A stretch of 64,000 bases of DNA from Bacteroidetes bacterium B1(2017). Lineage in GTDB: Bacteria > Bacteroidota > Bacteroidia > UKL13-3. The position numbers and the translations under genes are program-made. Each line of letters begins with the position of its first letter. Positions within the stretch are counted from its first letter, which is position 1. Below, piece by piece: positions 1 to 15,516 of the stretch. Location of the stretch: NCBI GenBank assembly GCA_002256395.1, contig NKJG01000002.1, positions 209,098 through 273,097 of the forward strand, read 5' to 3'. The notes below the pieces were generated by a model. It did not search any database, was not told where the DNA came from, and saw nothing but the letters and a program-made list of their open reading frames with translations.

Positions 1-3000
1 TTCAATAGCAAGTATTTCCTTACCCATAAGGTCAATCAGTTTTAGGGTTGAACTCGATTTCGAATTTGTGTTTATTGAAATACTCGTATTTGTAGGGTTA
101 GGATAAACCGAAATGCTTGGCTCAATGAATTCTTCACTTGATAAGCCTGTAGAATGAGGCCTATTATTGCTTATCCAAATGCTAAACCTATTATTACCAA
201 ACGAGGCTGTATCTGAAGTTACATTGAATGATTTTATCAAAGGTTCTCCATTTAGTAGTTGAGTTTCGGTATGCGTGTATTTATCTAATAAAAATACTTG
301 GTAGAAATTAGGAAGACTTAGGCTTTCAACCTTTATAGTGTAGTTTCCTTGGGTGGCTGAACCTAAGCCTAGCGGAAGCTCTTTTTCACTATTATCTTCA
401 ATATTAGCAAGTGTGTTAATAGCATATTTCTTATTGTTTACATCATAGGAATAAATATTTACACCACTAGCATTTCCCATTTTTTCGGCATCTGCATCTT
501 CGTCAAATAAATCGGTTTTGTTTCGGTTAAATATAATTAAATGTTCATCCGATTTAGAGTTACTATTACTAAGGGTTAATCTAATTTCAAAGGGTTTATT
601 TCCCTTAAACATATTCGATGCAGCACTATTTGTTTTAGCAGCCTCTGTAACAGAAAGGATAGGGGATGCTGCATTTGCTTTTACAAAAAATGCTTGTCCA
701 GATGCAATAATATTTGTACCACCATTGGTTCCACCCGATCCTGTAACATAAGTTGCATATCTATCGTTGGCTGGATCAAAAATCCAAGTAGTTCCCAAAA
801 CATTTGTCTTCGTCCAACTTGCCTGATCCCAATCAATAGCGCATGGGTAAGGGTTTCCAACTAAATTCCATCCATCACCATTTAACGCATTGTAAGTAAC
901 AGCAAAAGTATGGTCTCCTGTTTTAACTGTACCACTCGCACTTAATGTTACATCAATGGGTGTATTGTTAGTTCCATCCAATAAGCCACATCCTTGGCTT
1001 CTATTACCTCTTATATAAACATTATAACCTGTTCCTGCAGTTAAGTTAGTAGAGCCAGTATTTGGGATGCTTGTCCAGGCGTTGGTATATACTGTGGCAC
1101 CACTAATATTAGGAGTGGTTGCAACAGGAGTTGCTGTTGCTTCATTAAATGTAAGCATACTTCCGTTATTATTAGTAGAAGCATCAAATCCATTTGAATG
1201 TGCTGTTAAGCTTGGGCAAGCAGTTCCACCAGAACCAGAACCAGTTATATAAATTTGTTGTTGCCAAGATGAGGCAATGGTAGGACCAGAGCTAAAAGGA
1301 GCCGCAAGATTTCTGTATTTTCTTCCAGATGTAGCAGATGGAATATAGCGTTCTACGGTCACATTTCCTGTAATAGAACCACTTGAACCAATAGAGGCAG
1401 TTCCAGTATTATCTGATTTTAAAGTTAATAGTCCGGCTGTGGTCAAGGTTCCGCTAAATGTTATTTGGCCACCAGCAGAAACAGATTTCATACCTGCACC
1501 ACTTATGGTAATATTTACATAAGCCCTAGGTGTTACTGTTTGAGCCGATGCAGAGGTATATTCAATAGTTGAGCCAGAGCCTAACGTAATAGTAGGTGTA
1601 TTAGAAGTACTAATTGTAGTGCTTGTACTGCCGCTAAATCCTTCTGTTTTCGATGTCTTTAAAATTCCATTTATGGTAAAGGTAGCAGACGCACCTGAAG
1701 CAATAAGTTGATTATTTGCAGCATCTAAAATACCACCACTTGCAGCAACAGTTAAGTTTGTAGATGCACCTAAATTTAAGTTGCCAACTAAGGTTGCAGA
1801 AGTAGAAGAACTAATAGTAATACCATTTGTGTTTGTTAAGGTTAATGATGTTCCGCCATTTGTTCCTAATTGAGCGCTAGTTCCTGTAATACTCCATACT
1901 CCTGTTCCAGATGCAGTCATTGCATTGGTTCCACCCAAACCAACAATTCCATATTTAAATGTTTTTGTACTATTACCTGTCCAACCTAAAGTTACCCCGC
2001 TTGCAAGTTCAACCCTGCCATTAAATGTAGTTTGAGTGCCAGCTCCCAAAGAAGCAATGGTTTGTCCAAATCTAAAAATTGGAATTTCTGTGGTTACATT
2101 AGGGAAGTAGGTAACACCTGATGTAGATGGTGAAGAAGATAAATTATACAATAAAATACCACCCGTTTCATAAACATGAGTAGAAGCATTTACGCCAGCA
2201 TTATTAGCAGTTAATCCAGTAGATTCAACACTTAGAATTCCACCGGTTTTAATTCTAATGTTTGAACTAGCAGTATAGGTAAAAGTACTTACAGTGTAAT
2301 TTACTCTTCCACCTGATTCAATACTAATATCATCGCCCGTTCCATTATTAACTGTCATTGCAGCAGAAACTATTAAAATTCCTCCACTTTGAACCACAAC
2401 CTCATCTACAGTAGCTGTTGCAGAAACAGTAACCGTATGGCCGTTTTGAATAGTTATTGTACTATTTGAGCTACTTGGTAAATCTGCAGAAAGTGTTACT
2501 GTTGCATATGTAGAACCACCATTTGCCGATCTTTCCCATGTTTCGCTACCAGAAGTTACTCCATTCCAATTTCCAGTGCGTAATGAGCGATAAATATAAC
2601 TTGCAGGACCCGCATTAATATCAAAACTAGAGCTTGTTACATCCCAGTCAAGAGTAGAAGTTCTTTCGGCATTTAAAGTTAAGGTAGTTCCTGTAACAGT
2701 ATGTGTTAAGCCAGCAAAAGTAGCTAAACCAGAACTAGCTGCCACATCAATAGGTGAACCTGTTAAGGTTCCAGTTGATGTAATTCTAATGGAGCTTGTA
2801 AAATCTAAATCTCTATTTCCATTCCCATCATTTGCACTAACTGTTACATCTGTCATAGCTACATTGCTAGTTGTATTAGCAGGTTGAGCAACAAATGCTA
2901 AAGCTGTTGCAGTAACTTCTAATCTATTCACATCGACGCTTGTAGAAGAGGCTGCAGCCCCAGCACTAGCTGATGCAAAACCAGATAGAGTAGCTGTTGA

Positions 3001-5925
3001 TGTTGCAGAACTAACCGTAAAGGTTAGTTGCTGATTATCTGTTACAGTTGATTGATAAGTAACTCTTAATTCAAAATCTTTTGTTCCACCATCTGTGCTA
3101 GTACTTAAAGTTAGTCCAGAAAAAGTAATGCTTGTTCCACCATTTACAGCAATCTCTGCTATATTACTTGAACCATCAAATAAGGCTGCTGTTCTAATGG
3201 CAGTTGAACCACCTGTGCTAAATGTAATATCTGTTAAAGTAGTGGCTAAGTTATCAGCATCAGTAGTTACACCACCATCGCGCAATGTTAGTCCATTTAC
3301 ACCTACACTATTGGCTAAAGTTAAAGTACTAGAAGTTTGTTTAGCGGCATAATCAACATTACTGGTGTAAGTATATCCAGCGGTATTTGTAATATCAGAT
3401 GCTACCGAAACTGTTCCAGAACCAGTAACCGTAAAGGTATACGTTCCTTCATCAGTATCATTATTAATGATTGTAATTATAGTAGTTTTAGCTCCTGCTG
3501 TGGTTGGGTTAAACGTAACAGTAAAAGTAGTTGTATTACTTGGAGTAATTGGACTGCTTGCACTAGCGGTATTTAGAGTAAAATCTGTAGTATTTGAACT
3601 TGTTATACTTGAATAGGTTAGATCTAAGGTGCCTAAATTTTCAATAGTAAAAGTTGTGGCCGAACCCGAATTGCCAGAAACAATGCTACCAGCGGCATAG
3701 GTACCACTACCCGATACTATACTGGTTACATTTTGTTTTACATTTATTTCTGGAGCAGCAGAAGTTACATTAAATGAATTACTAAGATCTGTAAACGACC
3801 CTTGTGTAGCCGTTAATTGATTTGTGTTTGAAGCTGTTGAAAATACTAAATTATTTAATGTAGCTACACCTGCAACCATTGCAACTGTAGTGGTTGCAGC
3901 TCCTCCAAAAGTTGTTGAACCAGAAGAAATAGTTAAAACAACATTCGATGTATTGTCTAAATCGTAATTTACGTTTGCGTCAATTGCTCTAACAGTTGGA
4001 GATGGGTTCATCACAGAATTTTGAGCTACATGACTTACATTTTGGTCAAAAATTATATCAGTAGTAGCTACTTCAATTTTGTTATTATCTCCACTAGTGG
4101 AAGTGGCTGCTGCCCCAGCATTGGCTGCCGAAAAACCTGATCCCGCTCCGCTTGCTGTTGCCGAAGATACCGTAAATGAAATTTGTTGATTATCTGTAAC
4201 AGAACTTTTAAAAGTAGCTCTTAATGAAAAAGTTTTACTCCCATTATCTGATGGTGCTAAGGTCAGTCCAGAAAAGCTAGAGGTAGCAGTTACCGAAGTT
4301 AGCTCACCAACATTTGTGCTACCATCAAAAATTGCTAGGGTACGAATATTTGAAAAGTTGGCAACTGTAAAAGAAATAGCAGTTAACGTAGTGCTTAATG
4401 CATCTGCATCCGAACTGCCACCACCATCTTGAATATCAAATTGGCCTACTTCAATTGAATTACCACTTGTTAATGTAGAAGCAGTTTGGTAGGCAGAATA
4501 ATCAATATTTGTTGGGTGTGTAAAGCTAGAATTTAAAATAATATTCGACGATGATGAGGATGAATTTGTAATTGAAACATTATCCAACCCTACTGTTAAA
4601 TTTGTAGAACCAGAGGAATTGTCTCTCCAAGATGCCCATCTTAATTGATAATTTGTGCTAGTTGAAAGTCCTGTTATAGATAAAGATGATTTACTTGTAA
4701 CACTATTCAGGATTGGCGTAGATCCACCGGCTGTGAAAGTAACAGAACTCCCAGATACAGAAGTCCAAGACCCCGTTGTACCTGCTCTATATTCTAATTC
4801 AATCCCCATGGTCCTATATCCCGATGCAGAATACAAAACCTCAATGTCATACGAAACATTAACACTAGTTAGTGATCCAGTATTTATAGTTAAAAATGGT
4901 TGATTTAAACCACTCGTTGTGCTACTTGATGTAGCTATCGCAAGTTCTCCGTTTGAGGATAATCCATATCCTAAAAGTCCGCCTGTTGGTTCAGAAGCTA
5001 TTGCACCTGCTTGGGCAGTTAAACCAATTAAAGAACCTGAAGGTGTGGTTGCCAATGCCGTAGCTTGACTAGCAGTAGCACTGCCATCTTGGGCCCTTCC
5101 ATGAAACCCAGCTGGATAGGTAGTAAAGGAGGCAGAGGTTCCAAAATTTTGTGAATAAGGCAAGCTCTGGGGAAAAACTAATGTTACATTATCTATACCT
5201 ATTCCTTGTCCATTGGTTGAACCACCATTACCAGTATATCTCCACCTAAAATAATAGGTAGACCCATTTGTAATACTTAATCCTGTTAAACTTACACTTT
5301 TACTTATTGTAACAGCCGGGTTTGAAATTACCGTATTATTTGCATCCGCTGCGTAGCTTTGGTCTCCAGCTGTTGCAGATGTATTTACACTGGTATTTGT
5401 ACCTCCGTGAAAAAATGTCCAATCAAAAGCTCTTGAACCCGACCTGTATTTTTCATAATCAAAATGCAAATCTAATGCTGTTATTGTGCTGCCGGTATTA
5501 TTTGTGAAGGCAAAAAAGATATCTCTTGGTGAGGTATATGCTCCTGCTGTTAAAAATCCAATAGCCCTCTCTGTTGCACTACCAGTTATACCATTTGCCC
5601 AATTTATTGCACCTCCACTTGATGATGAAGTTACAGCTCCTGATCCTGTATTTCCATAAGCAAGGGTTGTAGCTGTTGTATTTCCAGCAGCTGTCCAATC
5701 GGCTGTATTGTTTCCAAATTTAAATCCTGTTGGTAAACTGGCAGTACCACTTGTTCCAATGGTAAAATCTTGGAAGTAAGTTGAAGAGGTTGTTATACTT
5801 ACTTGACTCATTACACTGTTAGTACCCAAAAACAAGCACATAACACTTAAACCTATAAACCTAAATAAAGAAAACTTGCCTTTACTTTTAGAAAGGCTTT
5901 GATACTGTAAAACACTTTTTTTCAT
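1..5925 (-). CDS. Giant Ser/Thr/Gly-rich cell-surface protein with T9SS (Por) C-terminal sorting domain; partial, C-terminal ~30 aa lie beyond the window start
   Basis: My own minus-strand translation gives an ATG at 5925 (MKKSVLQYQSLSKSKGKF..., signal-peptide-like). The frame stays open to position 1 (...SVYPNPTNTSISINTNSKSSSTLKLIDLMGKEILAIE). The YPNP + I.I + LIDL.GK motif is the Por_Secre_tail signature. Two ~390-aa internal modules repeat (NQQISFTVSSATASG.. and NQQLTFTVSSATSTA..). It is absent from the ORF track only because its stop lies outside the window. Confidence 0.75.
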   Translation of the reverse strand, partial: MKKSVLQYQSLSKSKGKFSLFRFIGLSVMCLFLGTNSVMSQVSITTSSTYFQDFTIGTSGTASLPTGFKFGNNTADWTAAGNTTATTLAYGNTGSGAVTSSSSGGAINWANGITGSATERAIGFLTAGAYTSPRDIFFAFTNNTGSTITALDLHFDYEKYRSGSRAFDWTFFHGGTNTSVNTSATAGDQSYAADANNTVISNPAVTISKSVSLTGLSITNGSTYYFRWRYTGNGGSTNGQGIGIDNVTLVFPQSLPYSQNFGTSASFTTYPAGFHGRAQDGSATASQATALATTPSGSLIGLTAQAGAIASEPTGGLLGYGLSSNGELAIATSSSTTSGLNQPFLTINTGSLTSVNVSYDIEVLYSASGYRTMGIELEYRAGTTGSWTSVSGSSVTFTAGGSTPILNSVTSKSSLSITGLSTSTNYQLRWASWRDNSSGSTNLTVGLDNVSITNSSSSSSNIILNSSFTHPTNIDYSAYQTASTLTSGNSIEVGQFDIQDGGGSSDADALSTTLTAISFTVANFSNIRTLAIFDGSTNVGELTSVTATSSFSGLTLAPSDNGSKTFSLRATFKSSVTDNQQISFTVSSATASGAGSGFSAANAGAAATSTSGDNNKIEVATTDIIFDQNVSHVAQNSVMNPSPTVRAIDANVNYDLDNTSNVVLTISSGSTTFGGAATTTVAMVAGVATLNNLVFSTASNTNQLTATQGSFTDLSNSFNVTSAAPEINVKQNVTSIVSGSGTYAAGSIVSGNSGSATTFTIENLGTLDLTYSSITSSNTTDFTLNTASASSPITPSNTTTFTVTFNPTTAGAKTTIITIINNDTDEGTYTFTVTGSGTVSVASDITNTAGYTYTSNVDYAAKQTSSTLTLANSVGVNGLTLRDGGVTTDADNLATTLTDITFSTGGSTAIRTAALFDGSSNIAEIAVNGGTSITFSGLTLSTSTDGGTKDFELRVTYQSTVTDNQQLTFTVSSATSTATLSGFASASAGAAASSTSVDVNRLEVTATALAFVAQPANTTSNVAMTDVTVSANDGNGNRDLDFTSSIRITSTGTLTGSPIDVAASSGLATFAGLTHTVTGTTLTLNAERTSTLDWDVTSSSFDINAGPASYIYRSLRTGNWNGVTSGSETWERSANGGSTYATVTLSADLPSSSNSTITIQNGHTVTVSATATVDEVVVQSGGILIVSAAMTVNNGTGDDISIESGGRVNYTVSTFTYTASSNIRIKTGGILSVESTGLTANNAGVNASTHVYETGGILLYNLSSSPSTSGVTYFPNVTTEIPIFRFGQTIASLGAGTQTTFNGRVELASGVTLGWTGNSTKTFKYGIVGLGGTNAMTASGTGVWSITGTSAQLGTNGGTSLTLTNTNGITISSSTSATLVGNLNLGASTNLTVAASGGILDAANNQLIASGASATFTINGILKTSKTEGFSGSTSTTISTSNTPTITLGSGSTIEYTSASAQTVTPRAYVNITISGAGMKSVSAGGQITFSGTLTTAGLLTLKSDNTGTASIGSSGSITGNVTVERYIPSATSGRKYRNLAAPFSSGPTIASSWQQQIYITGSGSGGTACPSLTAHSNGFDASTNNNGSMLTFNEATATPVATTPNISGATVYTNAWTSIPNTGSTNLTAGTGYNVYIRGNRSQGCGLLDGTNNTPIDVTLSASGTVKTGDHTFAVTYNALNGDGWNLVGNPYPCAIDWDQASWTKTNVLGTTWIFDPANDRYATYVTGSGGTNGGTNIIASGQAFFVKANAASPILSVTEAAKTNSAASNMFKGNKPFEIRLTLSNSNSKSDEHLIIFNRNKTDLFDEDADAEKMGNASGVNIYSYDVNNKKYAINTLANIEDNSEKELPLGLGSATQGNYTIKVESLSLPNFYQVFLLDKYTHTETQLLNGEPLIKSFNVTSDTASFGNNRFSIWISNNRPHSTGLSSEEFIEPSISVYPNPTNTSISINTNSKSSSTLKLIDLMGKEILAIE

Positions 5926-6208
5926 ATACTATTTTTTATTTTTGATTTCAGTTACTTTAGAGTTAAAATCAAAATCTTACTACTTAACTCGGGGTAAAAG
6001 TCATCTCACTACTTCAACTAAACATCATCCTAATGTTTCGTTTATGTTAATGAAAAAAAATGACTTCATACAGGTGTATTTTATATCCTTCAAAGGACGC
6101 ATACCCCAAAATAATTTGCAAGCAATAGCCATCAACTAAATCCAGTAAACCGGATTTAATTTTAGTTTTAGAAAATTAAAAATGCTTAAGATGCCTAATG
6201 GGCGTAGG

Positions 6209-7450
6209 TTACAGAGTTTGGCTCGAACCCATTTCTTGTATAGCTAAATAAGCCATAAGTCCAGACCCAAGAGCTAATGCGTCTTCATCAATATCAAAAG
6301 TAGGGGTATGCACACCCGAAATAATACCTCTTGATTCGTTCCTTGTTCCTAATCTATAAAAACACGCAGGTGCAACTTGTGAGTAATATGAAAAATCTTC
6401 GGCAGCCATCCAAATATCTAAATCTAACACATTTTCTATACCAAGATATTCTTGCGCAGCAGTTTTTGCTCTAGCTGTAACTTCTGGGTTGTTTTTAAGA
6501 AACGGATATCCTTTTCTAATTTCAAAATCAACAGAACCGCCAAATCCTTCAGCAATACTAGTAGCTGTTCTTAGCATCAATTCATGTGCTTTTGCTCGCC
6601 AGTTTTCGTCAAGAGTTCTAAAGGTTCCTTCTAAATAAACCTCATTGGGTATAACATTAGTAGCTCCATTGGCTATTACTTTTCCAAAGCTTAATACACT
6701 TGGAATAATAGGATTACTTTGTCTACTTACCAATTGCTGCAAAGCTGTAATCATTTGTGCTGTAATTGCAATTGGGTCAATACATAAATGAGGCATGGCA
6801 CCATGACCACCTTTTCCTTTTACTGTAACATATAATTCATCAGTGCTTGCCATATATAAACCACTTCTAAAACCTACCTTACCAACAGGTATAAGTGGCA
6901 TTACGTGCTGACCCAAAATTGTGTTAACAGTAGGGTTTTCAAGAATACCTTCCTGTATCATTAAGCTTGCACCGCCAGGAAGTTTTTCTTCTCCAGGTTG
7001 AAATATAAGTTTAAATGTGCCTTCAAAAAGATCTTTATGATCCATCAATAATTTAGCAACGCCCAATAAACAAGTTGTATGAACATCATGGCCGCATGCA
7101 TGCATTACTCCGTGGTTCTTTGATTTATATTCCACCTCATTGGCTTCAATTATTGGAAGGGCATCCATATCGGCGCGCAGGGCAATGGTTTTAAAGGAAG
7201 GATTTTTTCCTTCAATTAATACTTCCAATCCAGTTACTGCCATTTCCTTTATTTGAGTAATTCCCATTGCCTCTAACTGGGCCCTCACATAGGCAACAGT
7301 TTCAAATTCTTTAAATGAAAGTTCTGGATGACTATGGATATGCCTGCGAATGGTAATTAATTGGTCAGAAAGTGAATTTGCTTGTGATTTAATGCTTGCT
7401 AGTATGCTCATAACTAAAGCAAAAGAAATCATAAAACTCCATTTTACCAA
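6209..7450 (-). CDS. Peptidase M20D-family amidohydrolase (aminoacylase / hippurate-hydrolase-like), secreted
   Basis: 413 aa with an N-terminal signal peptide. It carries the M20 metal-binding motifs HACGHD and MDALP and the dimerisation-domain pattern. Confidence 0.8.
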   Translation of the reverse strand: MVKWSFMISFALVMSILASIKSQANSLSDQLITIRRHIHSHPELSFKEFETVAYVRAQLEAMGITQIKEMAVTGLEVLIEGKNPSFKTIALRADMDALPIIEANEVEYKSKNHGVMHACGHDVHTTCLLGVAKLLMDHKDLFEGTFKLIFQPGEEKLPGGASLMIQEGILENPTVNTILGQHVMPLIPVGKVGFRSGLYMASTDELYVTVKGKGGHGAMPHLCIDPIAITAQMITALQQLVSRQSNPIIPSVLSFGKVIANGATNVIPNEVYLEGTFRTLDENWRAKAHELMLRTATSIAEGFGGSVDFEIRKGYPFLKNNPEVTARAKTAAQEYLGIENVLDLDIWMAAEDFSYYSQVAPACFYRLGTRNESRGIISGVHTPTFDIDEDALALGSGLMAYLAIQEMGSSQTL

Positions 7451-7541
7451 AGACTGACATTATTCATGTAGTTTCAATCGAATGCTTACATTTGATTTGT
7501 CGTTTAAACCTACATAAATTACTAATTCATAAGTAAAGAGT

Positions 7542-7790
7542 ATGCAACTAAATAAAAACATCGCCGTGAGTGAAAACGGATTTATTTTCAACCCGGTTAG
7601 TGGTGATTCATTTTCAACCAACCCAATTGGTCAAGAAATTATTAGGTTAATGAAGGATCAAAAGGATAGAAAAGAAATTACAAAAATTCTGGCAGATAAG
7701 TATGCTGCCGATGATGCCACTATTGAAAAAGATTTAAGTGATTTTTTTCAAATGTTATTGTCGTACCAATTAATAAACGACCATGAATAG
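7542..7790 (+). CDS. PqqD-like small protein (RiPP recognition element fold)
   Basis: 82 aa with a PqqD-type pattern (NIAVSENGFIFNPVSGDSFSTNPIGQEIIRLM...ILADKY.....IEKDLSDFFQML..QLI). It ends in ...DHE, a C-terminal Glu. Its stop overlaps the next ORF's start (ATGAATAG). Confidence 0.6.
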   Translation: MQLNKNIAVSENGFIFNPVSGDSFSTNPIGQEIIRLMKDQKDRKEITKILADKYAADDATIEKDLSDFFQMLLSYQLINDHE

Positions 7791-8832
7791 GCGCAAAATA
7801 ACCGTTGCCGTTTCTGGATTAAATAATATTGATAGTCCAGGCCCAGGTATACCCGTTATTAGAGCATTAAAAGAAAGTACAGAGTTTGATGTTCGAATAA
7901 TTGGTTTGAGTTACGAAACTCTTGAACCGGGATTATATATGCACGATTTGGTTGATAAATCTTATTCTATTCCATTGCCTTCTTCTGGTATGGATAGCTT
8001 ATTGGTGCGTTTAGAATATATACATTCGAGAGAAAAGTTAGATGTTATTATCCCAAATTTTGATGCCGAATTGCATAGTTTTATTAAGCTTGGACCTATT
8101 CTAAAATCAAGTTATAATATCGCTACCTTCATGCCAGATCTAGAAACATTTGAATCGCGACATAAGTCAGTTCTGTATGAATTTGGTGAAAAGAATGAGG
8201 TAAAAGTGCCTAAAGCGAAAATGATTTATTCACCTGCTGAAATAGGAGCAATAGGTCAAGAACTAGGTTACCCTTTAGTTGTAAAAGGTAAATACTATGA
8301 TGCAAGTATTGCGGCAACTCCAGAGCAAGCTGTGAACTATTTTCATAAAATTGCCAATAAATGGGGACTTCCAATTATCCTTCAAGAATTTGTTTCGGGT
8401 AATGAGGTAAATGTTACTGCAATAGGCGATGGAAATGGAAATTGTATTGGAGCTGTTCCTATGCGTAAGTTATATATTACGGATAAAGGAAAGGCTTGGG
8501 CAGGTATTTCATTATTAGATGAGGAGCTTATAAAAATAGCTAATCGTGTAATTGCAAATTCTAAATGGCGCGGAGGTTGTGAACTTGAATTTATAAAATC
8601 AAAAGAAGGAGAGTATTACCTATTAGAAATGAATCCTCGTTTTCCAGCTTGGGTTTATTTAGCTGTTGGTTGTGGTCAGAACCACCCCGAAGCACTTGTG
8701 AAATTGGCACTAGGCGAAGATGTTAAACCCTATGAAACCTATGAAAGCGGGAAGCTCTTTGTTCGCTATTCGTTTGATCAAATAGTTAGCCTTCAAGAAT
8801 ATGAAAAAATTTCAACCTTGGGCGAACTATAA
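7783..8832 (+). CDS. ATP-grasp domain protein (CPSase/PylC-like carboxylate-amine ligase)
   Basis: 349 aa with a pre-ATP-grasp N-domain. It has a GYPLVVKG ATP-binding region and the E(L/M)NPRF motif typical of CPSase/biotin-carboxylase-type ATP-grasp enzymes. It overlaps the PqqD-like gene by 8 nt. Confidence 0.75.
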   Translation: MNRRKITVAVSGLNNIDSPGPGIPVIRALKESTEFDVRIIGLSYETLEPGLYMHDLVDKSYSIPLPSSGMDSLLVRLEYIHSREKLDVIIPNFDAELHSFIKLGPILKSSYNIATFMPDLETFESRHKSVLYEFGEKNEVKVPKAKMIYSPAEIGAIGQELGYPLVVKGKYYDASIAATPEQAVNYFHKIANKWGLPIILQEFVSGNEVNVTAIGDGNGNCIGAVPMRKLYITDKGKAWAGISLLDEELIKIANRVIANSKWRGGCELEFIKSKEGEYYLLEMNPRFPAWVYLAVGCGQNHPEALVKLALGEDVKPYETYESGKLFVRYSFDQIVSLQEYEKISTLGEL

Positions 8833-8893
8833 AAAATACTACCGACATAAAATCATTTAAATAAACATTAAAAAACTTTCAATTTCTATACAT

Positions 8894-10252
8894 ATGGCAA
8901 AGTTAAGTTATGAGCGTCCAGTTATTCAAAAGTTAAATACTGGAAGTATGAATAAATTTGGTACCCGCACAGAATATGCTCCGGTTACCCATATAGAAGG
9001 TGTGGCTGTTAAAGATATTATTGCAGAATATGGTTCGCCAGTTTTTGTTATTAGCGAGCAGCAAATACGAAGGAATTATCAGCAAGCTGTTAGAGCGTTT
9101 AAAACCAGATATCCTAAGGTTCAATTTGCCTGGAGTTACAAAACAAATTACATGAATGCGGTTTGTAATGTGTTTCATCAAGAAGGTTCATGGGCAGAGG
9201 TTGTATCCATTTTTGAATATAAAAAAGCCATAGGTAATGGCGTTCCAGGAAATAAAATTATTTTTAATGGTCCCGATAAATCGGAGGAGGATTTAATACT
9301 TGCGGTTAAAAATAAATCGCTTATTCATATTGATCATTTCGACGAGCTATATATGTTAATTGAAGTTGTTCAGAACCTAAAAATGAAGGCTTCAGTTGCC
9401 ATTCGTGTGAATATGGATGTAGGCGTATATCCAATGTGGGATCGCTTTGGATTTAACTATGAAAATGGCCAAGCTTGGAATGCTATAAATAAAATTATGA
9501 GTCAGCCAGAGCTAGAATTAAACGGTTTGCATTGTCATATTGGAACCTATATGTTAACCTCTGCAGCCTACGCAACTGCGGCTTGGAAGCTGTGCGATTT
9601 GGCTATTAACATAAAGTCTAAATGGAATAAAATAATCCAATACCTTGATTTGGGTGGTGGCTTTGCCTCAGCTAATACGTTGAAAGGTAGTTACCTTCAG
9701 GGGCCAGATATAATTCCAAGTATGGAAGATTATGCAGAAGCAATTTCATCAACCATCCTAAACTTTGGTTTCAAACCGAATGAATTGCCTACCCTGTTTT
9801 TAGAAACTGGCAGAGCTTTAATTGATGATGCAGGCTATCTTTTAGGTTCGGTAATTGCCACCAAACGCTTAAGCGATGGTCGTCGTGCCACCATTATGGA
9901 TTTTGGTGTGAACCTATTGTTTACTGCTTTCTGGTATAACCACAAAATTTCACCTGCACAAGAATTCTCCCACCATACAGAAGATATGGTAGTTTACGGG
10001 CCACTTTGCATGAATATTGATTGTATTAGAGAGAGTGTAAACCTACCATTATTAAGCAAAGGCGATCAAGTGGTGGTTCATAAAGTAGGAGCATACAACA
10101 TGACTCAATGGATGCAGTTTATTCAAATGCGCCCTAATATTGTTATGGTTGATGCTAAGCAGCAAGTTCATCTTATTCGTCATAAAGAATCGGTTGAAAC
10201 CATGTTGCAATATGAGCATATGCCTGCTCATCTTGAAAAGTTTGAGTTGTAG
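8894..10252 (+). CDS. PLP-dependent decarboxylase, Orn/DAP/Arg decarboxylase family 2 (alanine-racemase-like TIM barrel)
   Basis: 452 aa. It carries the family motifs DLGGGF and HCHIGT (HxHxGS-like), and the length matches DapDC/ODC-type decarboxylases. Confidence 0.75.
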   Translation: MAKLSYERPVIQKLNTGSMNKFGTRTEYAPVTHIEGVAVKDIIAEYGSPVFVISEQQIRRNYQQAVRAFKTRYPKVQFAWSYKTNYMNAVCNVFHQEGSWAEVVSIFEYKKAIGNGVPGNKIIFNGPDKSEEDLILAVKNKSLIHIDHFDELYMLIEVVQNLKMKASVAIRVNMDVGVYPMWDRFGFNYENGQAWNAINKIMSQPELELNGLHCHIGTYMLTSAAYATAAWKLCDLAINIKSKWNKIIQYLDLGGGFASANTLKGSYLQGPDIIPSMEDYAEAISSTILNFGFKPNELPTLFLETGRALIDDAGYLLGSVIATKRLSDGRRATIMDFGVNLLFTAFWYNHKISPAQEFSHHTEDMVVYGPLCMNIDCIRESVNLPLLSKGDQVVVHKVGAYNMTQWMQFIQMRPNIVMVDAKQQVHLIRHKESVETMLQYEHMPAHLEKFEL

Positions 10253-10296
10253 AATTTGAACTTTCGAAAAATTAATAGTAAGATGCAATTTGAATT

Positions 10297-12486
10297 TTGA
10301 ACATGAAAAAAGAACTTAATTGGCTATATTTTTTGGATACTGTACTGAACAGTTATAGCCAAATATTTTTTTCTTTAAACAAGCTATTTGCTAGCACTAT
10401 ACTTTTGGTAACATTTTTTGATCCAAAGGTTGGGTTATTTGGTCTAGTATCTGTTTTGCTAGTGAACCTAATGGCCTTTGCCTTTGGATTTAATAGAAAA
10501 GAAATAAGAGAAGGTATTTTTGGCTTTAATGCCTTGCTATTTGGATTGGCCATGGGTTTTAGATTCGAGATAAACGGAGCATTCCTTGTTTTGTTTTTTG
10601 TTTCGAACCTAAGCTTATTAGTTACAACAGCCGTCTTTAAGGGTAGTTTTGGTAAGGTACAATTGCCCTTTTTAAGTTTCCCGTTTTTACTAAGCTATTG
10701 GATAGTTTGTCTTGCCGTTAGTAGCTTAAGTAATATTCATTTGGCTGCGCCTGTGGTTTATTCTGAAATAGGAGTGCCTGGAGTTCAAAGTTTTTTTGAG
10801 ACTCTAGTGCATAGTTTGGATACTGTTTCAATGCCTGTATTAATTAAAATTTTCTTCAAAACTTTGGCTGCAACATTTTTTATTTCATCGGTTTTAGGTG
10901 GTTTATTAATTGCTATTTCTTTGTTTTTATTTTCGCGTATAACCTTCTCCCTTGCTGTGTTTGGGTTTACTGCGGCATTTTATGTGTATGATATTTTTGG
11001 TGCAGATATTTATCAACTTTCAGATAATATGGTTGGGTCGAACTATATCTTTTTTGCTATTGCGATAGGTGGCTTTTACCTCATTCCAAATTTGTATTCG
11101 TATGCAAGTAGTTTGGTTTTGGTACCCGTTTTATTATTAATGCAAATTGCCTTTGATAAATTATTTACTGGTTTTGAACTTAAAACCTTTACCCTTGCAT
11201 TTAGTGTTTTAACCTGTATCTTTTTATATGCCCTTCATCAAAGATGGATGCATAAATTTTTACACCTTGTTACCATTCAATATTATTCGGCCGAAAAAAC
11301 AGTTTATAAATATTTAAATGCCTTAAGTAGATTCAATCAAGCACACTTAAAGAAATTTGCTTTGCCTTTTTGGGGTGAGTGGCAGGTAAGCCAAGCATAT
11401 GATGGTAAAATAACTCATTTGGGCGATTGGAGTAAGGCTTTAGATTTTGTGGTGGTGGATGAAAAGTTAAAAACCTATAGAGAACCTGGACTTCATCTAA
11501 ATGATTTTTATTGCTATAATAAACCTGTTTTAGCTCCTGCCGATGGATATGTATATGCTATTTTTAACCATATAGATGATAATGAAATTGGGGTGGTTGA
11601 TACCGAAAAAAATTGGGGAAATAGTATCCTTATAAATCATTTGGATGGGGTGTTTTCACAAATAAGCCATCTTAAAAAGGACTCTTTTAAAGTAGCAGTT
11701 GGTGACTTTGTACAAAAGGGAACTTTATTGGCAGCATGCGGCAGCAGTGGGCGTTCACCAGAGCCTCATATGCATTTCCAGCTTCAAACAACCCCAACCT
11801 TAGGGGCAAAAACCTTAGCTTATCCCTTGGCCTATTACTTAGAACTTGGAATTACTAAAGAATGGGAGTTAAAACAATTTGAAGTACCCAAACAAGATGT
11901 AATCATTTCAAATGTTATGCAAGAAAAGCTATTGCATGATGCGTTTGATTGGATGCCTGGTAAACAATTTCATTTCGTAATTGAGGGTAAATCTGATTTA
12001 ATTGAATGGGAGGTTTTTACAGATGAATACAATAGATTATACCTTTTTGAACCTAAAACAAACAGCTATGCCTATTTTGTAAACGATGGCACTCGCTTTT
12101 ATTTCACCGACTTTGAAGGAAGTAGAAAGAGTAGTTTGTTTCAATTATACACTAGTTGCTATTCAGTATTATTAGGTGTATATCCAAAAATAAATTTAGG
12201 AGACAAGCTACCATTGATTCATTTTAATCCGCCTATTTTAATTTGGTTTCAAGATGTTTTGGCTCCATTTTATTTATTTACGGAAGCACGTTTTTCAAGT
12301 AAAATTAGAAAGGTAGACCAATTATTAGCCCCACAACGAATAGAAATTGAAAGTAATGTGGAGGCACGTTTATTAAATCAGAAGTTTAAAAGCAGCACCT
12401 ATTCTATTGTTATTACAGAAAAAGGTGTTTCAGAATTAACATTACTTAATGGCCCTAAAACAGAAAAATGGATATGCGTAGATTAA
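10297..12486 (+). CDS. Polytopic membrane protein: N-terminal urea-transporter (UT)-like domain fused to C-terminal M23 (LytM) metallopeptidase domain
   Basis: 729 aa. The N-terminal ~330 aa are polytopic with UT-family-like motifs (SQIFFSLNKLFAS..., GIFGFNALLFGLAMGF). The C-terminus carries the M23 signature (HLDGVFSQISHL...GSSGRSPEPHMHFQL, i.e. the HxxxD...HxH arrangement). Confidence 0.7.
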   Translation: MNMKKELNWLYFLDTVLNSYSQIFFSLNKLFASTILLVTFFDPKVGLFGLVSVLLVNLMAFAFGFNRKEIREGIFGFNALLFGLAMGFRFEINGAFLVLFFVSNLSLLVTTAVFKGSFGKVQLPFLSFPFLLSYWIVCLAVSSLSNIHLAAPVVYSEIGVPGVQSFFETLVHSLDTVSMPVLIKIFFKTLAATFFISSVLGGLLIAISLFLFSRITFSLAVFGFTAAFYVYDIFGADIYQLSDNMVGSNYIFFAIAIGGFYLIPNLYSYASSLVLVPVLLLMQIAFDKLFTGFELKTFTLAFSVLTCIFLYALHQRWMHKFLHLVTIQYYSAEKTVYKYLNALSRFNQAHLKKFALPFWGEWQVSQAYDGKITHLGDWSKALDFVVVDEKLKTYREPGLHLNDFYCYNKPVLAPADGYVYAIFNHIDDNEIGVVDTEKNWGNSILINHLDGVFSQISHLKKDSFKVAVGDFVQKGTLLAACGSSGRSPEPHMHFQLQTTPTLGAKTLAYPLAYYLELGITKEWELKQFEVPKQDVIISNVMQEKLLHDAFDWMPGKQFHFVIEGKSDLIEWEVFTDEYNRLYLFEPKTNSYAYFVNDGTRFYFTDFEGSRKSSLFQLYTSCYSVLLGVYPKINLGDKLPLIHFNPPILIWFQDVLAPFYLFTEARFSSKIRKVDQLLAPQRIEIESNVEARLLNQKFKSSTYSIVITEKGVSELTLLNGPKTEKWICVD

Positions 12487-13802
12487 TATTTTTTCTTTTC
12501 ATTTGGCCCGTCTTAATAAACGCTCAACCACTTACCTACACTAGTGTTGAGGTTAAATCTTTAGAGTATTACAATGATTTTGAGTATAAAAAATTAACGA
12601 AACTAGGTGAGGAGGCTTTGGATCAAAAAATTGATTTTTACGACCTACGAGTGCGAATGGGAATTGCTTATTATAAAATGAACAAATTTGAACCAGCCAC
12701 CATTCATTTTATGAAAGCAGTTGAAATGAATCCATCTGAACCTGATATTTTATCCTATGCCTATAATTGCTTGCTAATTACTGCTCAATTTAATAGAGCA
12801 AATGCATTCCTAATTCAATATCCAACTACAAGTGCAAGCATAAAACCAAAATCAACAGGTTTAGGAAGCGTTGAAATAGAAACCGGTTTAATCAATACGA
12901 ATTTAGCATCTAGTTATTCGGGAGAGATTTTGCGAGAATCAGGTTCTAATTATGCCTCTGGTAATTTCTTTTCTAAAATGGCCTATACTCGTGTATATGC
13001 TGAGGGATTAGCCTCACCCGACCTTAGATGGCATTTAGGTGGAAATATTTTTCAATCAACCCACCTGAGTAAGCTTGAGTTTTTTGATAAGAATACAGAG
13101 GTAGAAAAGTCGAGCTTAAATTATCAATTCAATTTTGGGTTTACTAAATTGCTTGCACACGGATGGCAAACAGGTATTGGCATTGCTTATTATCGTCAAA
13201 ACTTCCCATTCCCCTACGTTTCATCAACTATTCAGCCACCACCTCCAAATTCGGTATTTAAGGATTCCATTGAAACATCAAACGCTGTTAGTATTAGCGC
13301 TCTTATTTCAAAACGCATGAAATATATAGAACCTATTTTAGTGCTTAATTACGGCGATTTCGATCTTAAAAATAGATTTCAAGCAGAATTAGGAATAACA
13401 ACTTTCCCATTGGGTCATCAACAATTATACACCTACACGAGTGGCTCGTTTATTAGAAGTGATGGGAGTAATTCATATGCCTTTAATCAAAAAATTGGCT
13501 ATTCATTTAAGAATTCAATCTCCCTTGAGGGAAGCTTTTTAAAAGGTTCTTTAGATAATTATATGTGCAATATGGGCTTCTTAACCTTAAATACATTTGA
13601 CCCTTTGAAATGGTCGGCTGGAGCCGATTTAAATTACAGAATAAAGAGGTGGATTATTACACCTGGCTATAGAATTCAAAAAAGAGCTGGATCTTATGAA
13701 AGCGAATCTGCTCCAATTGGTCCTGTTCAACCAACTATAAAGACGAACAATTTTTCTTATTCAACAAACTTATTTTTTATCACACTAAAATGTCAATTTT
13801 AA
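12468..13802 (+). CDS. Secreted TPR-like N-domain + predicted outer-membrane beta-barrel protein
   Basis: 444 aa. The start overlaps the upstream stop by 19 nt. It has a signal peptide and TPR-like helices at ~40-110. The C-terminal ~300 aa show alternating-hydrophobic beta-strand character and end in a terminal Phe (..LKCQF), typical of OMP barrels. Confidence 0.4.
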   Translation: MDMRRLIFFLFIWPVLINAQPLTYTSVEVKSLEYYNDFEYKKLTKLGEEALDQKIDFYDLRVRMGIAYYKMNKFEPATIHFMKAVEMNPSEPDILSYAYNCLLITAQFNRANAFLIQYPTTSASIKPKSTGLGSVEIETGLINTNLASSYSGEILRESGSNYASGNFFSKMAYTRVYAEGLASPDLRWHLGGNIFQSTHLSKLEFFDKNTEVEKSSLNYQFNFGFTKLLAHGWQTGIGIAYYRQNFPFPYVSSTIQPPPPNSVFKDSIETSNAVSISALISKRMKYIEPILVLNYGDFDLKNRFQAELGITTFPLGHQQLYTYTSGSFIRSDGSNSYAFNQKIGYSFKNSISLEGSFLKGSLDNYMCNMGFLTLNTFDPLKWSAGADLNYRIKRWIITPGYRIQKRAGSYESESAPIGPVQPTIKTNNFSYSTNLFFITLKCQF

Positions 13803-14401
13803 AACAACTAGTTCTTGGAATGCTTCTAGTGGCAACCATTAACGCTAACGCCCAAAACTTAAGTGAGATTTTTGCTAAGAGTTATGCTGCAGAAAAAAAC
13901 GCTAACTATACCGAAGCAATTGCAGCTATGCAAGCACAAACGTATACCTCTTCATATGAAGTAAATTTACGATTAGGTTGGCTATATTATGCCGATAAAA
14001 AGCATAGCGAATCTGTAGCTTATTATCAAAAAGCAATTGCCTTAAAACCATTGGCTACAGAGCCATTATGGGGGATAATTTATCCTTTAAGTGTGCAAGA
14101 AAAGTGGACAGGAGTGGAGCAAGCATATAAAGATATTTTAAAGCTTGATCCAAGAAATTCAAAAGCCAATTACTACCTAGGTTCGATCTACTTTTATAGA
14201 AAAGATTATACCACTGCTAAAAAATATTTGCAAGAAGTTATTGCTCTTTATCCATTTGATAAAGATGCCAATTTACTTTACGGCTGGAGTCAATATTATC
14301 TTGGAAATACAAGTGAGGCAAAGAATGCCTTTAACCATGTTTTAAATAGTAAACCAGATGATTCCTCGGCTAAAGAAGGGTTGGCACTGTTAAATAAGTA
14401 G
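13790..14401 (+). CDS. Secreted tetratricopeptide-repeat protein
   Basis: 203 aa with a signal peptide (..ATINANAQ). It has multiple TPR-like W/Y-rich helical repeats. It overlaps the upstream gene by 13 nt. Confidence 0.6.
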   Translation: MSILKQLVLGMLLVATINANAQNLSEIFAKSYAAEKNANYTEAIAAMQAQTYTSSYEVNLRLGWLYYADKKHSESVAYYQKAIALKPLATEPLWGIIYPLSVQEKWTGVEQAYKDILKLDPRNSKANYYLGSIYFYRKDYTTAKKYLQEVIALYPFDKDANLLYGWSQYYLGNTSEAKNAFNHVLNSKPDDSSAKEGLALLNK

Positions 14402-14429
14402 ATTTGGTTTTATTTCTTATCTTTGGAAG

Positions 14430-14816
14430 GTGAAAGATTTCAAGAAATATTATGTCATTCCTGCACCTCCAGAAGATGTGTATTTGGCTCTTACCAATGA
14501 ACCAACTATGATGCTTTGGACAGGTGATCAGGCTAGTTTTGTAGCAGAGGTAGGTTCAGAATTTTCTATGTGGGATGGAAGTATTGTTGGAAAAAATTTA
14601 GAACTTGAGCTTAATAAAAAAATTGTTCAAGAATGGTTTTTTGGAGAGGAACCAACCGAAACTCCAAGTATTGTAACCCTTAAGTTGCATGTTCATAACC
14701 AAGGAACATCAATTGAGGTAAGGCATACTAATATTCCCGACGAAGAATATGATGATATTATCGATGGTTGGACAAACAATTATATGGCAGAACTCTATGA
14801 GTTTTACGATGAATAA
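14430..14816 (+). CDS. SRPBCC-superfamily small protein (Aha1/AHSA1-like)
   Basis: 128 aa. Length and pattern fit the Bet v1-like/AHSA1 fold. It is the last gene of the same operon, 28 nt after the TPR gene. Confidence 0.45.
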   Translation: MKDFKKYYVIPAPPEDVYLALTNEPTMMLWTGDQASFVAEVGSEFSMWDGSIVGKNLELELNKKIVQEWFFGEEPTETPSIVTLKLHVHNQGTSIEVRHTNIPDEEYDDIIDGWTNNYMAELYEFYDE

Positions 14817-14822
14817 TTGGTA

Positions 14823-15458
14823 TTAATTATTAATTTCTCCCTTGCCTTCACGAATTACAATTGGGTCATCCGAAGTGCAATCAATAATGGTTGAGGGGAT
14901 ATTTCCACCCGAACCACCGTCGATAACCATATCCACTTGGTGTTCAAATTTTTCATGAATCTCCTCAGGATCGGTCATATATTCAATTATTTCATCCTCA
15001 TGATGAATGGTTGAAACAACAAGCGGCGAACCTAATTCCTTTATAATGGTTTGTGCAATGGTATTATCTGGAACCCTTATACCAATTGTTTTCTTGTTGC
15101 CAGCAAATAGCTTGCTTACATGGTTATTAGCCCTTAAAATAAAGGTAAAGGCACCAGGCAAATTATTTTTTAACAGCCTAAATACATTTTTATCAATAGC
15201 AGCTGTTACATCAGAAATATTTGCCAAATCAGAACATAATAGGGAGTAATTTACCTTTTCTGGTTTCTTTCCCATAATCCTGCTCATGCGCTCTATTCCT
15301 TTTCTCGAATCCATTCTACAAGCCATAGCATAAATCGTATCCGTAGGAATAATTATTACCCCATCCGAATTCAAAACATCAAGCACCTTTTTTAGGTCGC
15401 GTGGATTTGGATTTTTTGTATGTAGTGCGAGTAGCATGATATAAATGAAAAAAGGCAC
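14823..15458 (-). CDS. tsaC: L-threonylcarbamoyladenylate synthase (TsaC/YrdC family)
   Basis: 211 aa. It carries the YrdC-domain motif ..IIIPTDTIYAMAC.. (the PTDTVYGL equivalent). Confidence 0.75.
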   Translation of the reverse strand: MPFFIYIMLLALHTKNPNPRDLKKVLDVLNSDGVIIIPTDTIYAMACRMDSRKGIERMSRIMGKKPEKVNYSLLCSDLANISDVTAAIDKNVFRLLKNNLPGAFTFILRANNHVSKLFAGNKKTIGIRVPDNTIAQTIIKELGSPLVVSTIHHEDEIIEYMTDPEEIHEKFEHQVDMVIDGGSGGNIPSTIIDCTSDDPIVIREGKGEINN

Positions 15459-15516
15459 TGAGTAATGAAAAGGAAGTAATCCTCACTCATTATTCAGTGC
15501 CTAATTTAGCTAAAAA

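Follow-up and report, generated by a model that had tools for sequence, protein, structure and literature searches.

A conserved Bacteroidota operon encodes a urea-transporter-type channel fused to an M23 peptidase domain

Introduction

Urea transporters (UTs) and M23 metallopeptidases each have a settled role: UT proteins mediate urea flux through pores that conduct small, neutral solutes, and M23 enzymes cut peptidoglycan cross-links. Proteins that join the two are already on record. JGI product naming gives the UT + M23 architecture, and a 2026 domain survey in Biol Direct catalogues it, with A0A399T3G1 as the example (PMC12998343). That survey lists the combination only and does not deal with topology, a third domain, an operon or function. 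Our literature search on the fusion and on the operon described here returned this survey and no functional work, so the architecture is known and its function is unpublished. In hundreds of Bacteroidota species the two domains are firmly joined, and their arrangement matches neither settled role.

Several other described systems resemble parts of the genetic setting of this fusion. In pathways of the PQQ (PqqA/D/E/F) and mycofactocin (MftA–F) type, a PqqD-family chaperone, a decarboxylation and a peptidase specific to the pathway together release a small product from a peptide. In rhizoferrin biosynthesis (FslA/FslC), ornithine is ligated through its side-chain amine and then decarboxylated. 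C39-peptidase ABC exporters fuse a cytoplasmic peptidase to a membrane exit, and the AlgK/AlgE, PgaA and BcsC modules bring together secreted tetratricopeptide repeats (TPRs) and a barrel.

Here we analyse a UT–M23 fusion encoded in a 64,000-nucleotide stretch of the Bacteroidetes bacterium B1(2017) genome (the window). Its gene belongs to a conserved and uncharacterised operon of Bacteroidota, of which the protein forms the membrane component; the operon looks built to make, cleave free and export a small peptide-derived compound. We assign a probability of roughly 0.38 to the reading in which this three-domain protein, with its M23 and C-terminal domains on the cytoplasmic side, serves an operon that ligates, decarboxylates, cleaves and exports.

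Results

The gene lies in a single open reading frame on the forward strand (10,297–12,486). The original prediction started it at a TTG codon at 10,297, two codons ahead of the ATG at 10,303; from that ATG, 10,303–12,486 encodes a three-domain inner-membrane protein of 727 amino acids (aa), on which our residue numbering is based (add 2 for the earlier numbering). It matches at 100% the deposited 727-aa 'hypothetical protein CFE21_06555, Bacteroidetes bacterium B1(2017)', and an AF2 model of the whole protein has a pLDDT of 86.4 and a pTM of 0.72. Both domains of the proposed fusion are genuine. The Pfam UT profile (PF03253; TC 1.A.28) matches residues 14–312 over profile positions 2–290 of 292 (E=1.3e-47; bit score 162.8, cutoff 25), and Peptidase_M23 (PF01551) matches residues 407–498 (E=4e-14; bit score 53, cutoff 28.7). 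The UT-type channel and the M23 zinc peptidase are followed by a third, unnamed domain. The M23 domain, earlier placed at the C terminus, is therefore central (about aa 356–512), with some 215 aa (513–727) coming after it. Both this third domain and the PqqD-like gene described below had been overlooked.

The fusion had also been called unusual, which it is not. We counted 425 representatives of the family at 50% identity. Genomes that carry the fusion number at least 539, and practically all of them are Bacteroidota; the protein in the window is one member of the already catalogued set, which forms a large conserved family and not an isolated oddity. None of the 14 short matches inspected was a family member without the UT domain.

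The N-terminal domain (aa 1–315; 10,303–11,247, +) is a complete urea-transporter-type channel, with the 10-TM inverted repeat of the UT family and its two pore helices. Most residues of the selectivity filter are either kept or exchanged for similar ones relative to dvUT, for which the filter residues are listed in PMC4357013. The Si filter (Q/I/F/L; dvUT, Q/V/F/L) and the Sm filter (L/S/F/T; dvUT, L/T/L/T) are both close to dvUT, and the So filter reads G|A/T/F/F|Y (dvUT, E/V/F/L). Compared with described UTs (dvUT, 3K3F; mammalian UT-A/UT-B; bacterial Yut), the outer-site Glu/Gln is replaced by Gly/Ala and a Leu by Phe/Tyr, about 410 extra, predicted cytoplasmic residues follow, and urea-metabolism genes are absent nearby. 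As the outer-site carboxylate of dvUT (E187) has become Gly or Ala, the solute may be wholly non-urea-like. The protein scores 91.1 bits against the Yut equivalog profile, far under the cutoff of 274.6.

The side of the membrane on which the M23 domain lies bears directly on its substrate. UT proteins consist of a 5+5 inverted TM repeat with cytoplasmic N and C termini and a periplasmic central T5a–Pb loop (PMC4357013). In the UT–M23 family, K+R residues number 1.5 per sequence at the N terminus and on average 6.9 in the 40 residues past the last TM helix (aa 313–355), the central loop of the UT domain is acidic, and in the AF2 model the TM helices end with the UT fold, with neither a further one nor a signal sequence ahead of M23. 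From homology to the UT family, this charge bias and the lack of a later helix, we infer that the M23 and C-terminal domains very probably face the cytoplasm. Ankyrin and EF-hand modules are cytosolic. Both occur as C-terminal fusions of other UTs (PMC12998343).

A cytoplasmic M23 domain should have peptidoglycan out of its reach; peptidoglycan hydrolases of the M23 type keep their catalytic domain outside the cytoplasmic membrane, and the predicted position here is the opposite one. This makes unlikely the local cell-wall remodelling or attachment put forward in the original prediction. In such a reading the UT-like domain would anchor a periplasmic M23 endopeptidase that remodels peptidoglycan locally, possibly together with the periplasmic TPR and outer-membrane (OM) proteins. 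Such a role would agree with the M23 fold and catalytic residues, which match those of peptidoglycan hydrolases, and with the two translationally coupled downstream genes, which encode secreted proteins. However, the cytoplasmic C terminus expected of UTs, the charge distribution and the uninterrupted passage from channel to peptidase all run against it, and a complete UT fold with a conserved pore exceeds what an anchor needs. We consider a periplasmic, wall-directed M23 domain very unlikely. Two observations on the genetic context touch on the same question: the genes most tightly coupled to UT–M23, being those for secreted proteins, would fit more simply with a periplasmic M23 domain, and a gene for PBP1a, which would also suit this reading, lies just downstream in one divergent locus.

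Between channel and peptidase is a conserved, K/R-rich linker (aa 316–355; 11,248–11,367, +) with many invariant residues, an amphipathic helix at 330–344 and pLDDT values of 66–76. The M23/LytM metallopeptidase domain that follows (aa ~356–512; 11,368–11,838, +) has the LytM fold, and its key residues are not degenerate. H372 (codon 11,416–11,418), D381 (11,443–11,445), H446, the catalytic H456 (11,668–11,670) and the HMH motif formed by H489 (11,767–11,769), M490 and H491 (11,773–11,775) are invariant in 40 homologues. The zinc site had been described as an intact HxxxD...HMH. The expected zinc ligands (H372, D381 and H491) and the two catalytic histidines (H456 and H489) bear this out, but the spacing of the first motif does not. 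The region reads T-H-L-G-D-W-S-K-A-L-D-F, and D375 varies among the 40 homologues (D29/E9/Q1/N1) whereas H372 and D381 do not, so that the first motif is H-x8-D. In this respect, and in a conserved insertion of ~20 aa that follows, the domain departs from the M23/LytM peptidases LytM, lysostaphin, LasA, Csd and ShyA; its predicted cytoplasmic location, which makes a peptidoglycan substrate unlikely, is a further difference. A longer first-motif spacer is found in LasA-type M23A enzymes. Judged from its conserved residues, the M23 domain is apparently active.

The C-terminal domain (aa 513–727; 11,839–12,483, +) is beta-rich and family-specific and belongs to no named family: Pfam and NCBIfam profiles gave no match over these residues, and a profile search for stand-alone or secreted versions returned only the fusion or N-truncated fragments of it. 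Its fold resembles ligand-binding barrels, with a weak resemblance to LolA and lipid carriers. It may be a novel beta-barrel-like domain, for which binding of a hydrophobic ligand is possible.

These features invite a reading in which the UT domain conducts urea or a small neutral amide and the cytoplasmic M23 and C-terminal domains act as a ligand sensor or gate and not as a peptidase, in parallel with the EF-hand and ankyrin fusions of other UTs, which carry regulatory-type modules at the same end (PMC12998343). The high conservation of the linker suggests rigid coupling to the channel, the barrel-like fold would suit a sensor, and EnvC, a non-catalytic LytM regulator, is among the best structural matches of the M23 domain. 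Regulatory LytM domains, however, have typically lost their zinc ligands, all of which are invariant here, and the conserved neighbours of the gene encode a ligase, a decarboxylase and a peptide chaperone, with no urease or urea-metabolism genes linked to it. A regulated channel of this kind seems to us rather unlikely.

The operon runs, on the forward strand and with overlapping stops and starts as the rule, from a PqqD-type chaperone through an ATP-grasp ligase, a PLP decarboxylase and UT–M23 to a secreted TPR protein with a probable OM barrel (OMTPR) and a periplasmic TPR protein (TPR2). The first gene (7,542–7,790, +) encodes an 82-aa, RRE-like peptide chaperone of the PqqD family (PF05402; E=4.2e-12; bit score 46.7, cutoff 23.4); the nearest NCBIfam models, scoring below cutoff, are lasso-type PqqD chaperones. 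Its last 8 nt are shared with the beginning of the ATP-grasp gene. The gene occurs in 32 related loci in addition to the window, always ending at the ATP-grasp start, and also in two divergent metagenome loci. A role as a LysW-type amino-group carrier was considered and rejected, since the protein has a PqqD fold and no invariant C-terminal Glu; the last residue varies among E, D, G, Q, K, A and V in 31 sequences.

The second gene (7,783–8,832, +) encodes a 349-aa ATP-grasp carboxylate-amine ligase (Pfam ATPgrasp_Ter, ATP-grasp_3 and CPSase_L_D2; PRK12767-like in NCBIfam, below cutoff), which is 57–92% identical across loci and thereby more conserved than UT–M23. The third (8,894–10,252, +) encodes a 452-aa fold-III PLP decarboxylase resembling FslC and LysA (Pfam Orn_Arg_deC_N and Orn_DAP_Arg_deC). 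Its best PDB match is the N-citrylornithine decarboxylase FslC (7kh2; E=1.9e-61), with DAP decarboxylases behind at 1e-46; it falls below the NCBIfam cutoffs for FslC (238 against 500 bits) and for LysA.

Downstream of UT–M23, OMTPR (12,468–13,802, +; 444 aa) overlaps the end of UT–M23 by 19 nt; start and stop overlap in 42 of 45 type-A pairs (defined below). It has a signal-peptide-like N terminus, a TPR_1 match at 62–90 and the C-terminal residues ...LKCQF; the signal peptide and the C-terminal aromatic residue fit an OM beta-barrel, which is probable on this basis. All nine homologues matched are hypothetical or plain TPR repeat proteins, and searching the PDB by sequence likewise matched nothing but TPRs. 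TPR2 (13,790–14,401, +; 203 aa), which overlaps OMTPR by 13 nt, has a signal peptide (N terminus MSILKQLVLGMLLVATINANAQ) and matches multiple TPR families. No riboswitch or other RNA element was found in the interval 6,000–16,000. A scan for sigma-70 promoters and terminators was uninformative, with counts at or below shuffled expectation.

Two flanking genes were rejected as core parts and are regarded as accessory. An AHSA1/SRPBCC-family protein of 128 aa (PF08327; E=4.9e-19), encoded by the last gene on the strand (14,430–14,816, +), is present only in the 4 closest loci. An M20 amidohydrolase resembling CpsA/DoeB (6,209–7,450, −; Pfam Peptidase_M20, TIGR01891), divergent from the operon, is adjacent in only 5 of 80 loci, all from the closest relatives.

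Across 80 related loci, tblastn detected OMTPR in 69, TPR2 in 72, the PLP decarboxylase in 40 and the ATP-grasp ligase in 37; clustering of open reading frames over 81 loci, the window included, placed OMTPR in 76 and TPR2 in 73. In about half of the related loci (type A), the PqqD-like, ATP-grasp and PLP-decarboxylase genes lie directly upstream, the two enzyme genes being on the same strand as UT–M23 and separated by short gaps. In about 34 others (type B), which make up most of the remainder and have no PqqD homologue, UT–M23 is divergently adjacent to a fold-I OKR decarboxylase and a PRK06524-type ATP-grasp protein, a pair unrelated to that of type A. The earlier suggestion that the fusion belongs to an operon plausibly making a small amine or amide thus gains strong backing from two sets of neighbours.

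The near-universal part of these loci is the trio of UT–M23, OMTPR and TPR2 only, and about 10% of loci with enough flank have neither enzyme pair adjacent, as would be expected if the biosynthetic genes were unrelated syntenic passengers and UT–M23 worked just with the two TPR/OM proteins in some other envelope function. That two unrelated ligase and decarboxylase pairs each adjoin UT–M23 across many lineages, and that the type-A enzyme genes share its strand at short distances, speaks against mere passengers, and we hold this account to be clearly improbable.

Discussion

In the ligate–decarboxylate–cleave–export reading, the chaperone would hold a peptide or carrier, and the ATP-grasp enzyme would link one of its carboxylates to the side-chain amine of an amino acid, most probably a diamino acid (Orn, Lys or DAP, for instance). 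The decarboxylase would then strip the free alpha-carboxyl group. The M23 domain would free a small amine or amide where the UT pore opens to the cytoplasm; this product would pass the inner membrane through that pore and exit through the TPR and barrel proteins. The analysis shows the domain identities, the conservation of the catalytic residues and of the operon, and the size of the family; what the substrate is, which way it flows and whether the proteins form a complex we infer. The most specific version, in which PqqD holds the peptide, ATP-grasp extends it, PLP chemistry decarboxylates it and M23 clips it at a repurposed UT channel before TPR/beta-barrel exit, we regard as doubtful.

The nearest solved relative of the decarboxylase, FslC, acts on ornithine acylated at its side-chain amine, in favour of the proposal. 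Against it, a diamine-containing product would be charged, unlike the small neutral solutes of UT pores; the type-B loci do without a PqqD homologue; and the very high conservation of ligase and decarboxylase (70–92%) is atypical for RiPP-like secondary metabolism. Nor is a precursor or carrier gene conserved beside type-A or type-B loci, where clustering of small open reading frames recovered only pqqD and its antisense shadow.

Set beside known pathways, the operon has in common with PQQ and mycofactocin the PqqD-family chaperone, encoded with modifying enzymes in type-A loci as in RRE/PqqD-dependent maturation, the decarboxylation step and the dedicated peptidase. It differs in having ATP-grasp and PLP chemistry in place of a radical-SAM enzyme, in lacking the precursor peptide gene at its loci and in the fusion of the peptidase to a channel. 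The order of ligase then decarboxylase genes is that of rhizoferrin FslA/FslC, but the ligase is of the ATP-grasp type and not an NIS synthetase, and siderophore receptor and TonB genes are absent. The likeness to C39-peptidase ABC exporters (a peptidase, predicted to be cytoplasmic, fused to a membrane exit) and to AlgK/AlgE, PgaA and BcsC (a secreted TPR protein and a probable barrel partner in the same operon) is architectural only: no homology to either group was detected, OMTPR matching TPRs alone, and where those exporters have an ABC pump, this protein has a narrow, passive channel.

The same enzymes could instead edit or recycle cell-wall precursors from inside, with a cytoplasmic M23 domain acting on lipid-linked or soluble stem peptides, the C-terminal domain holding the lipid tail, and the ATP-grasp ligase (like D-Asp/D-Ala ligases) and LysA-like decarboxylase modifying that peptide; the free D-centre of meso-DAP is one conceivable site. 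Stem peptides are recognised by M23 enzymes, the chemistry of peptidoglycan and DAP involves ATP-grasp ligases as well as DAP decarboxylase, and the weak LolA/lipid-carrier resemblance of the C-terminal domain would fit. We judge this distinctly unlikely.

Were the cleave-and-release route correct, it would be undescribed before in Bacteroidota. A cytoplasmic M23 domain would for the first time have a function, on a metabolite intermediate, and a UT pore would have its first role outside urea transport. The route would also tie the final step of biosynthesis to exit across the membrane in a new way, and it would point to a small molecule conserved widely in Bacteroidota. Should the proposed logic fail, the annotations 'urea transporter' and 'murein DD-endopeptidase MepM' are still probably misleading across the family.

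Domain composition and the zinc site

UT-M23 is encoded by a single open reading frame (ORF; 10297..12486, + strand), and the deposited protein starts at the ATG at 10303, has 727 amino acids and is identical in a homology search to a hypothetical protein of the metagenome-assembled genome (MAG) 'Bacteroidetes bacterium B1(2017)'. Residues are numbered here on those 727 amino acids; the original prediction ran two higher. As that prediction proposed, both sequence and fold assign UT-M23 to the urea transporter (UT) family and to the M23 family: Pfam UT (PF03253) covers residues 14–312 over the full profile (E=1.3e-47), Peptidase_M23 (PF01551) covers residues 407–498 (E=4e-14), and a profile built from 40 homologues matches solved urea transporters (best E 5e-22) and M23 peptidases (best E 4e-10). 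The M23 domain, which had been placed at the C terminus, is central and is followed by a third domain (513–727) with no family match in Pfam or NCBIfam. Folded by itself, this domain gave a confident beta-rich model (pLDDT 90.1). Its profile found 425 representatives among 1.84 billion, 152 of them at E<=1e-30, and all inspected matches were the same fusion or N-truncated fragments retaining UT helices and M23, so the domain appears to be exclusive to this family.

The zinc site looks intact, as predicted, with H446, the catalytic H456 and H489-x-H491 invariant in the 40-sequence alignment; the HxxxD motif that had been described is absent. The first motif reads T-H372-L-G-D375-W-S-K-A-L-D381-F, in which H372 and D381 are invariant and position 375 varies, giving a spacing of H-x8-D, and more divergent members carry THKxxWxHAWDF. 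After D381 comes an insertion, also conserved, of some 20 residues. The domain belongs to a distinct M23 subgroup.

Predicted orientation and pore

UT proteins have a 5+5 inverted-repeat fold whose two halves are joined by a periplasmic or extracellular loop, T5a–Pb (PMC4357013), so that both termini are cytoplasmic. Charge averages over the 40 sequences follow the same pattern: K+R and D+E per sequence are 1.5 and 0.4 in the N-terminal 8 residues, 1.25 and 4.25 in the central loop (140–178), and 6.9 and 1.5 after the last transmembrane helix (313–355). The structure model has a short amphipathic helix at 330–344 and no transmembrane helix beyond the UT fold. Ankyrin repeats and EF-hands are cytosolic modules. 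Both occur C-terminal to other UT domains (PMC12998343). From UT homology and charge bias, we conclude that the M23 and C-terminal domains are predicted to lie on the cytoplasmic side. Peptidoglycan is an unlikely substrate for an M23 domain so placed, which argues against the cell-wall remodelling originally suggested. By this topology UT-M23 would lack the location required of a peptidoglycan hydrolase, and we consider a periplasmic hydrolase very unlikely. We also regard editing of cell-wall precursors in the cytoplasm as improbable.

We mapped the filter residues of dvUT (PMC4357013) onto the family alignment. The inner site (Si) is Q/I/F/L in the family and Q/V/F/L in dvUT, the middle site (Sm) L/S/F/T and L/T/L/T, and the outer site (So) G or A/T/F/F or Y and E/V/F/L; the outer site has thus lost the carboxylate and become more aromatic. 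These residues suggest that the narrow amphipathic slot of UT pores is retained. UT-M23 scores far under the NCBIfam Yut equivalog cutoff, and its solute is plausibly small and neutral, not necessarily urea. We hold a ligand-gated channel to be possible but unlikely.

Distribution and prior record

A first homology search returned 2394 related clusters at E<=1e-5, of which the best 120 are all 712–759 amino acids long with both Pfam domains; NCBI names these 'urea transporter' and JGI 'urea transporter/murein DD-endopeptidase MepM/murein hydrolase activator NlpD'. When one genome was scanned for each species, at least 539 carried a relative. The best 80 of these are Bacteroidota MAGs from several orders, except two records titled Saccharibacteria and Bifidobacterium, which are probably mislabelled bins. 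M23 appears, without further comment, among the modules C-terminal to bacterial UT domains in a 2026 survey of how UT proteins evolved (PMC12998343), so the architecture is already on record and the fusion is less unusual than first thought. We found no functional study of the fusion or operon in the literature. As far as we searched, no earlier description exists of the third domain, the cytoplasmic orientation inferred here, the H-x8-D subgroup, the six-gene operon or its alternative enzyme pair.

A conserved operon with alternative enzyme pairs

Neighbours were compared by tblastn and by clustering every ORF of 80 related loci and the window. The window's order is pqqD-like, ATP-grasp, decarboxylase, UT-M23-CTD, TPR/outer-membrane protein, TPR protein and SRPBCC gene. 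UT-M23 forms a core trio with OMTPR (12468..13802, +; 76/81 loci), a secreted protein of about 440 amino acids with N-terminal TPR and a C terminus typical of outer-membrane barrels, and TPR2 (13790..14401, +; 73/81 loci), a TPR protein of about 200 amino acids with a signal peptide. In loci of the window's type (type A, described below), the stop codon of one gene overlaps the start codon of the next in 42/45 UT-M23–OMTPR pairs and 46/52 OMTPR–TPR2 pairs. The SRPBCC/AHSA1 gene (14430..14816, +) and a divergent M20 amidohydrolase gene (CpsA/DoeB2-like; 6209..7450, −) border the operon in none but the nearest relatives of the window (4–5/80 loci) and may be lineage-specific accessories.

In type A, which comprises about 40 loci including the window, genes for a fold-III PLP decarboxylase and an ATP-grasp ligase lie upstream of UT-M23 on its own strand, separated by short gaps. 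Both enzymes are 57–92% identical between loci, whereas UT-M23 there is only 40–71% identical. Identity is strikingly uneven for one operon: between the window and its closest locus, it is 92% for the ATP-grasp and decarboxylase (7783..10252 in the window), and 71% for UT-M23 and 54% for the outer-membrane TPR protein (together 10303..13802), and against distant orders roughly 70%, 45% and 25%. The decarboxylase's nearest solved relative, ahead of DAP decarboxylases, is the N-citrylornithine decarboxylase FslC (E=1.9e-61), whose substrate is an amino acid already acylated on its side-chain amine.

In two divergent metagenome loci a PqqD gene directly precedes the ATP-grasp gene. The window has a corresponding 82-amino-acid ORF (7542..7790, +), readily overlooked at ordinary length cut-offs, that shares 8 nt with the beginning of the ATP-grasp gene and exceeds the Pfam threshold for PF05402 (E=4e-12); its nearest NCBIfam models, under cutoff, are lasso-peptide PqqD chaperones. 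The gene was detected in 32 related loci and the window, all type A, and in no type-B locus. PqqD-type proteins are chaperones that bind precursor peptides and present them to modifying enzymes, and this ORF alters the reading of the entire operon. A LysW-like carrier role is disfavoured, the C terminus of the chaperone being unconserved.

Around 34 loci (type B; L004–L063) instead carry a divergent trio: a 145-amino-acid protein without a family match, glyoxalase/VOC-like by eye (for example L005:8180-8617, −); a 913-amino-acid fold-I Orn/Lys/Arg decarboxylase (OKR_DC_1) with about 280 extra N-terminal residues (L051:2541-5282, −); and a 489-amino-acid PRK06524 'biotin carboxylase'-type ATP-grasp (L046:4100-5569, −). 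That two unrelated pairs of ligase and amino-acid decarboxylase adjoin UT-M23 favours a functional link over passive synteny, and we think it improbable that the neighbours are unrelated to its function.

A proposed pathway

We propose, at a probability of about 0.4, a 'build on a peptide, clip, and let out' scheme, of which the analysis shows the parts list, the conservation of the parts and a predicted topology, while we infer the substrate, the flux direction and any complex. The ligase would couple an amino acid to a carboxylate of the chaperone-bound peptide; the simplest case is a diamino acid that is linked, like the one in FslC's substrate, by way of the side-chain amine. The PLP enzyme would then remove the carboxyl from the free alpha-amino-acid end. 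M23, tethered by the conserved linker at the channel's cytoplasmic face, would release a small product that crosses the inner membrane through the UT pore, with the TPR and barrel proteins handling the periplasm and outer membrane. At type-B loci, decarboxylation would come first and ligation second, yielding a similar amide. Five points weigh against this scheme: no conserved precursor gene was found at type-A or type-B loci; type-B loci lack the chaperone; a diamine product would be charged, whereas UT pores pass neutral solutes; UT-M23 is tightly coupled to genes of secreted proteins; and enzyme conservation is unusually high for a secondary-metabolite pathway. The working logic resembles that of PQQ and mycofactocin, PqqD-dependent pathways to peptide-derived cofactors, and of peptidase-fused exporters, but the operon has neither the defining enzymes of these systems nor homology to them.

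Other neighbouring genes

Just upstream of the operon, before pqqD, eight type-A loci (L020, L033, L039, L048, L052, L054, L059 and L077) encode two proteins, identified by eye, that may control it: a response regulator of LytTR type and a histidine kinase resembling LytS. In the divergent metagenome locus of P0275, the TPR gene is followed immediately by a class-A PBP gene (Transgly and Transpeptidase), and two ORFs without annotation (95 and 169 amino acids) come just ahead of pqqD. Another locus, L081, has a PAD_porph gene (agmatine/peptidylarginine deiminase family; 11534-12328, −) near the operon on the opposite strand. In the window, an ORF of at least 1976 amino acids (1..5928, −) runs past the window start. 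Its N terminus is signal-peptide-like, its repeats are rich in Ser, Thr, Gly and Asn, and the segment at the window edge resembles, by eye, the first part of a T9SS-type sorting domain. The product is probably secreted to the cell surface and has no relation to the operon.
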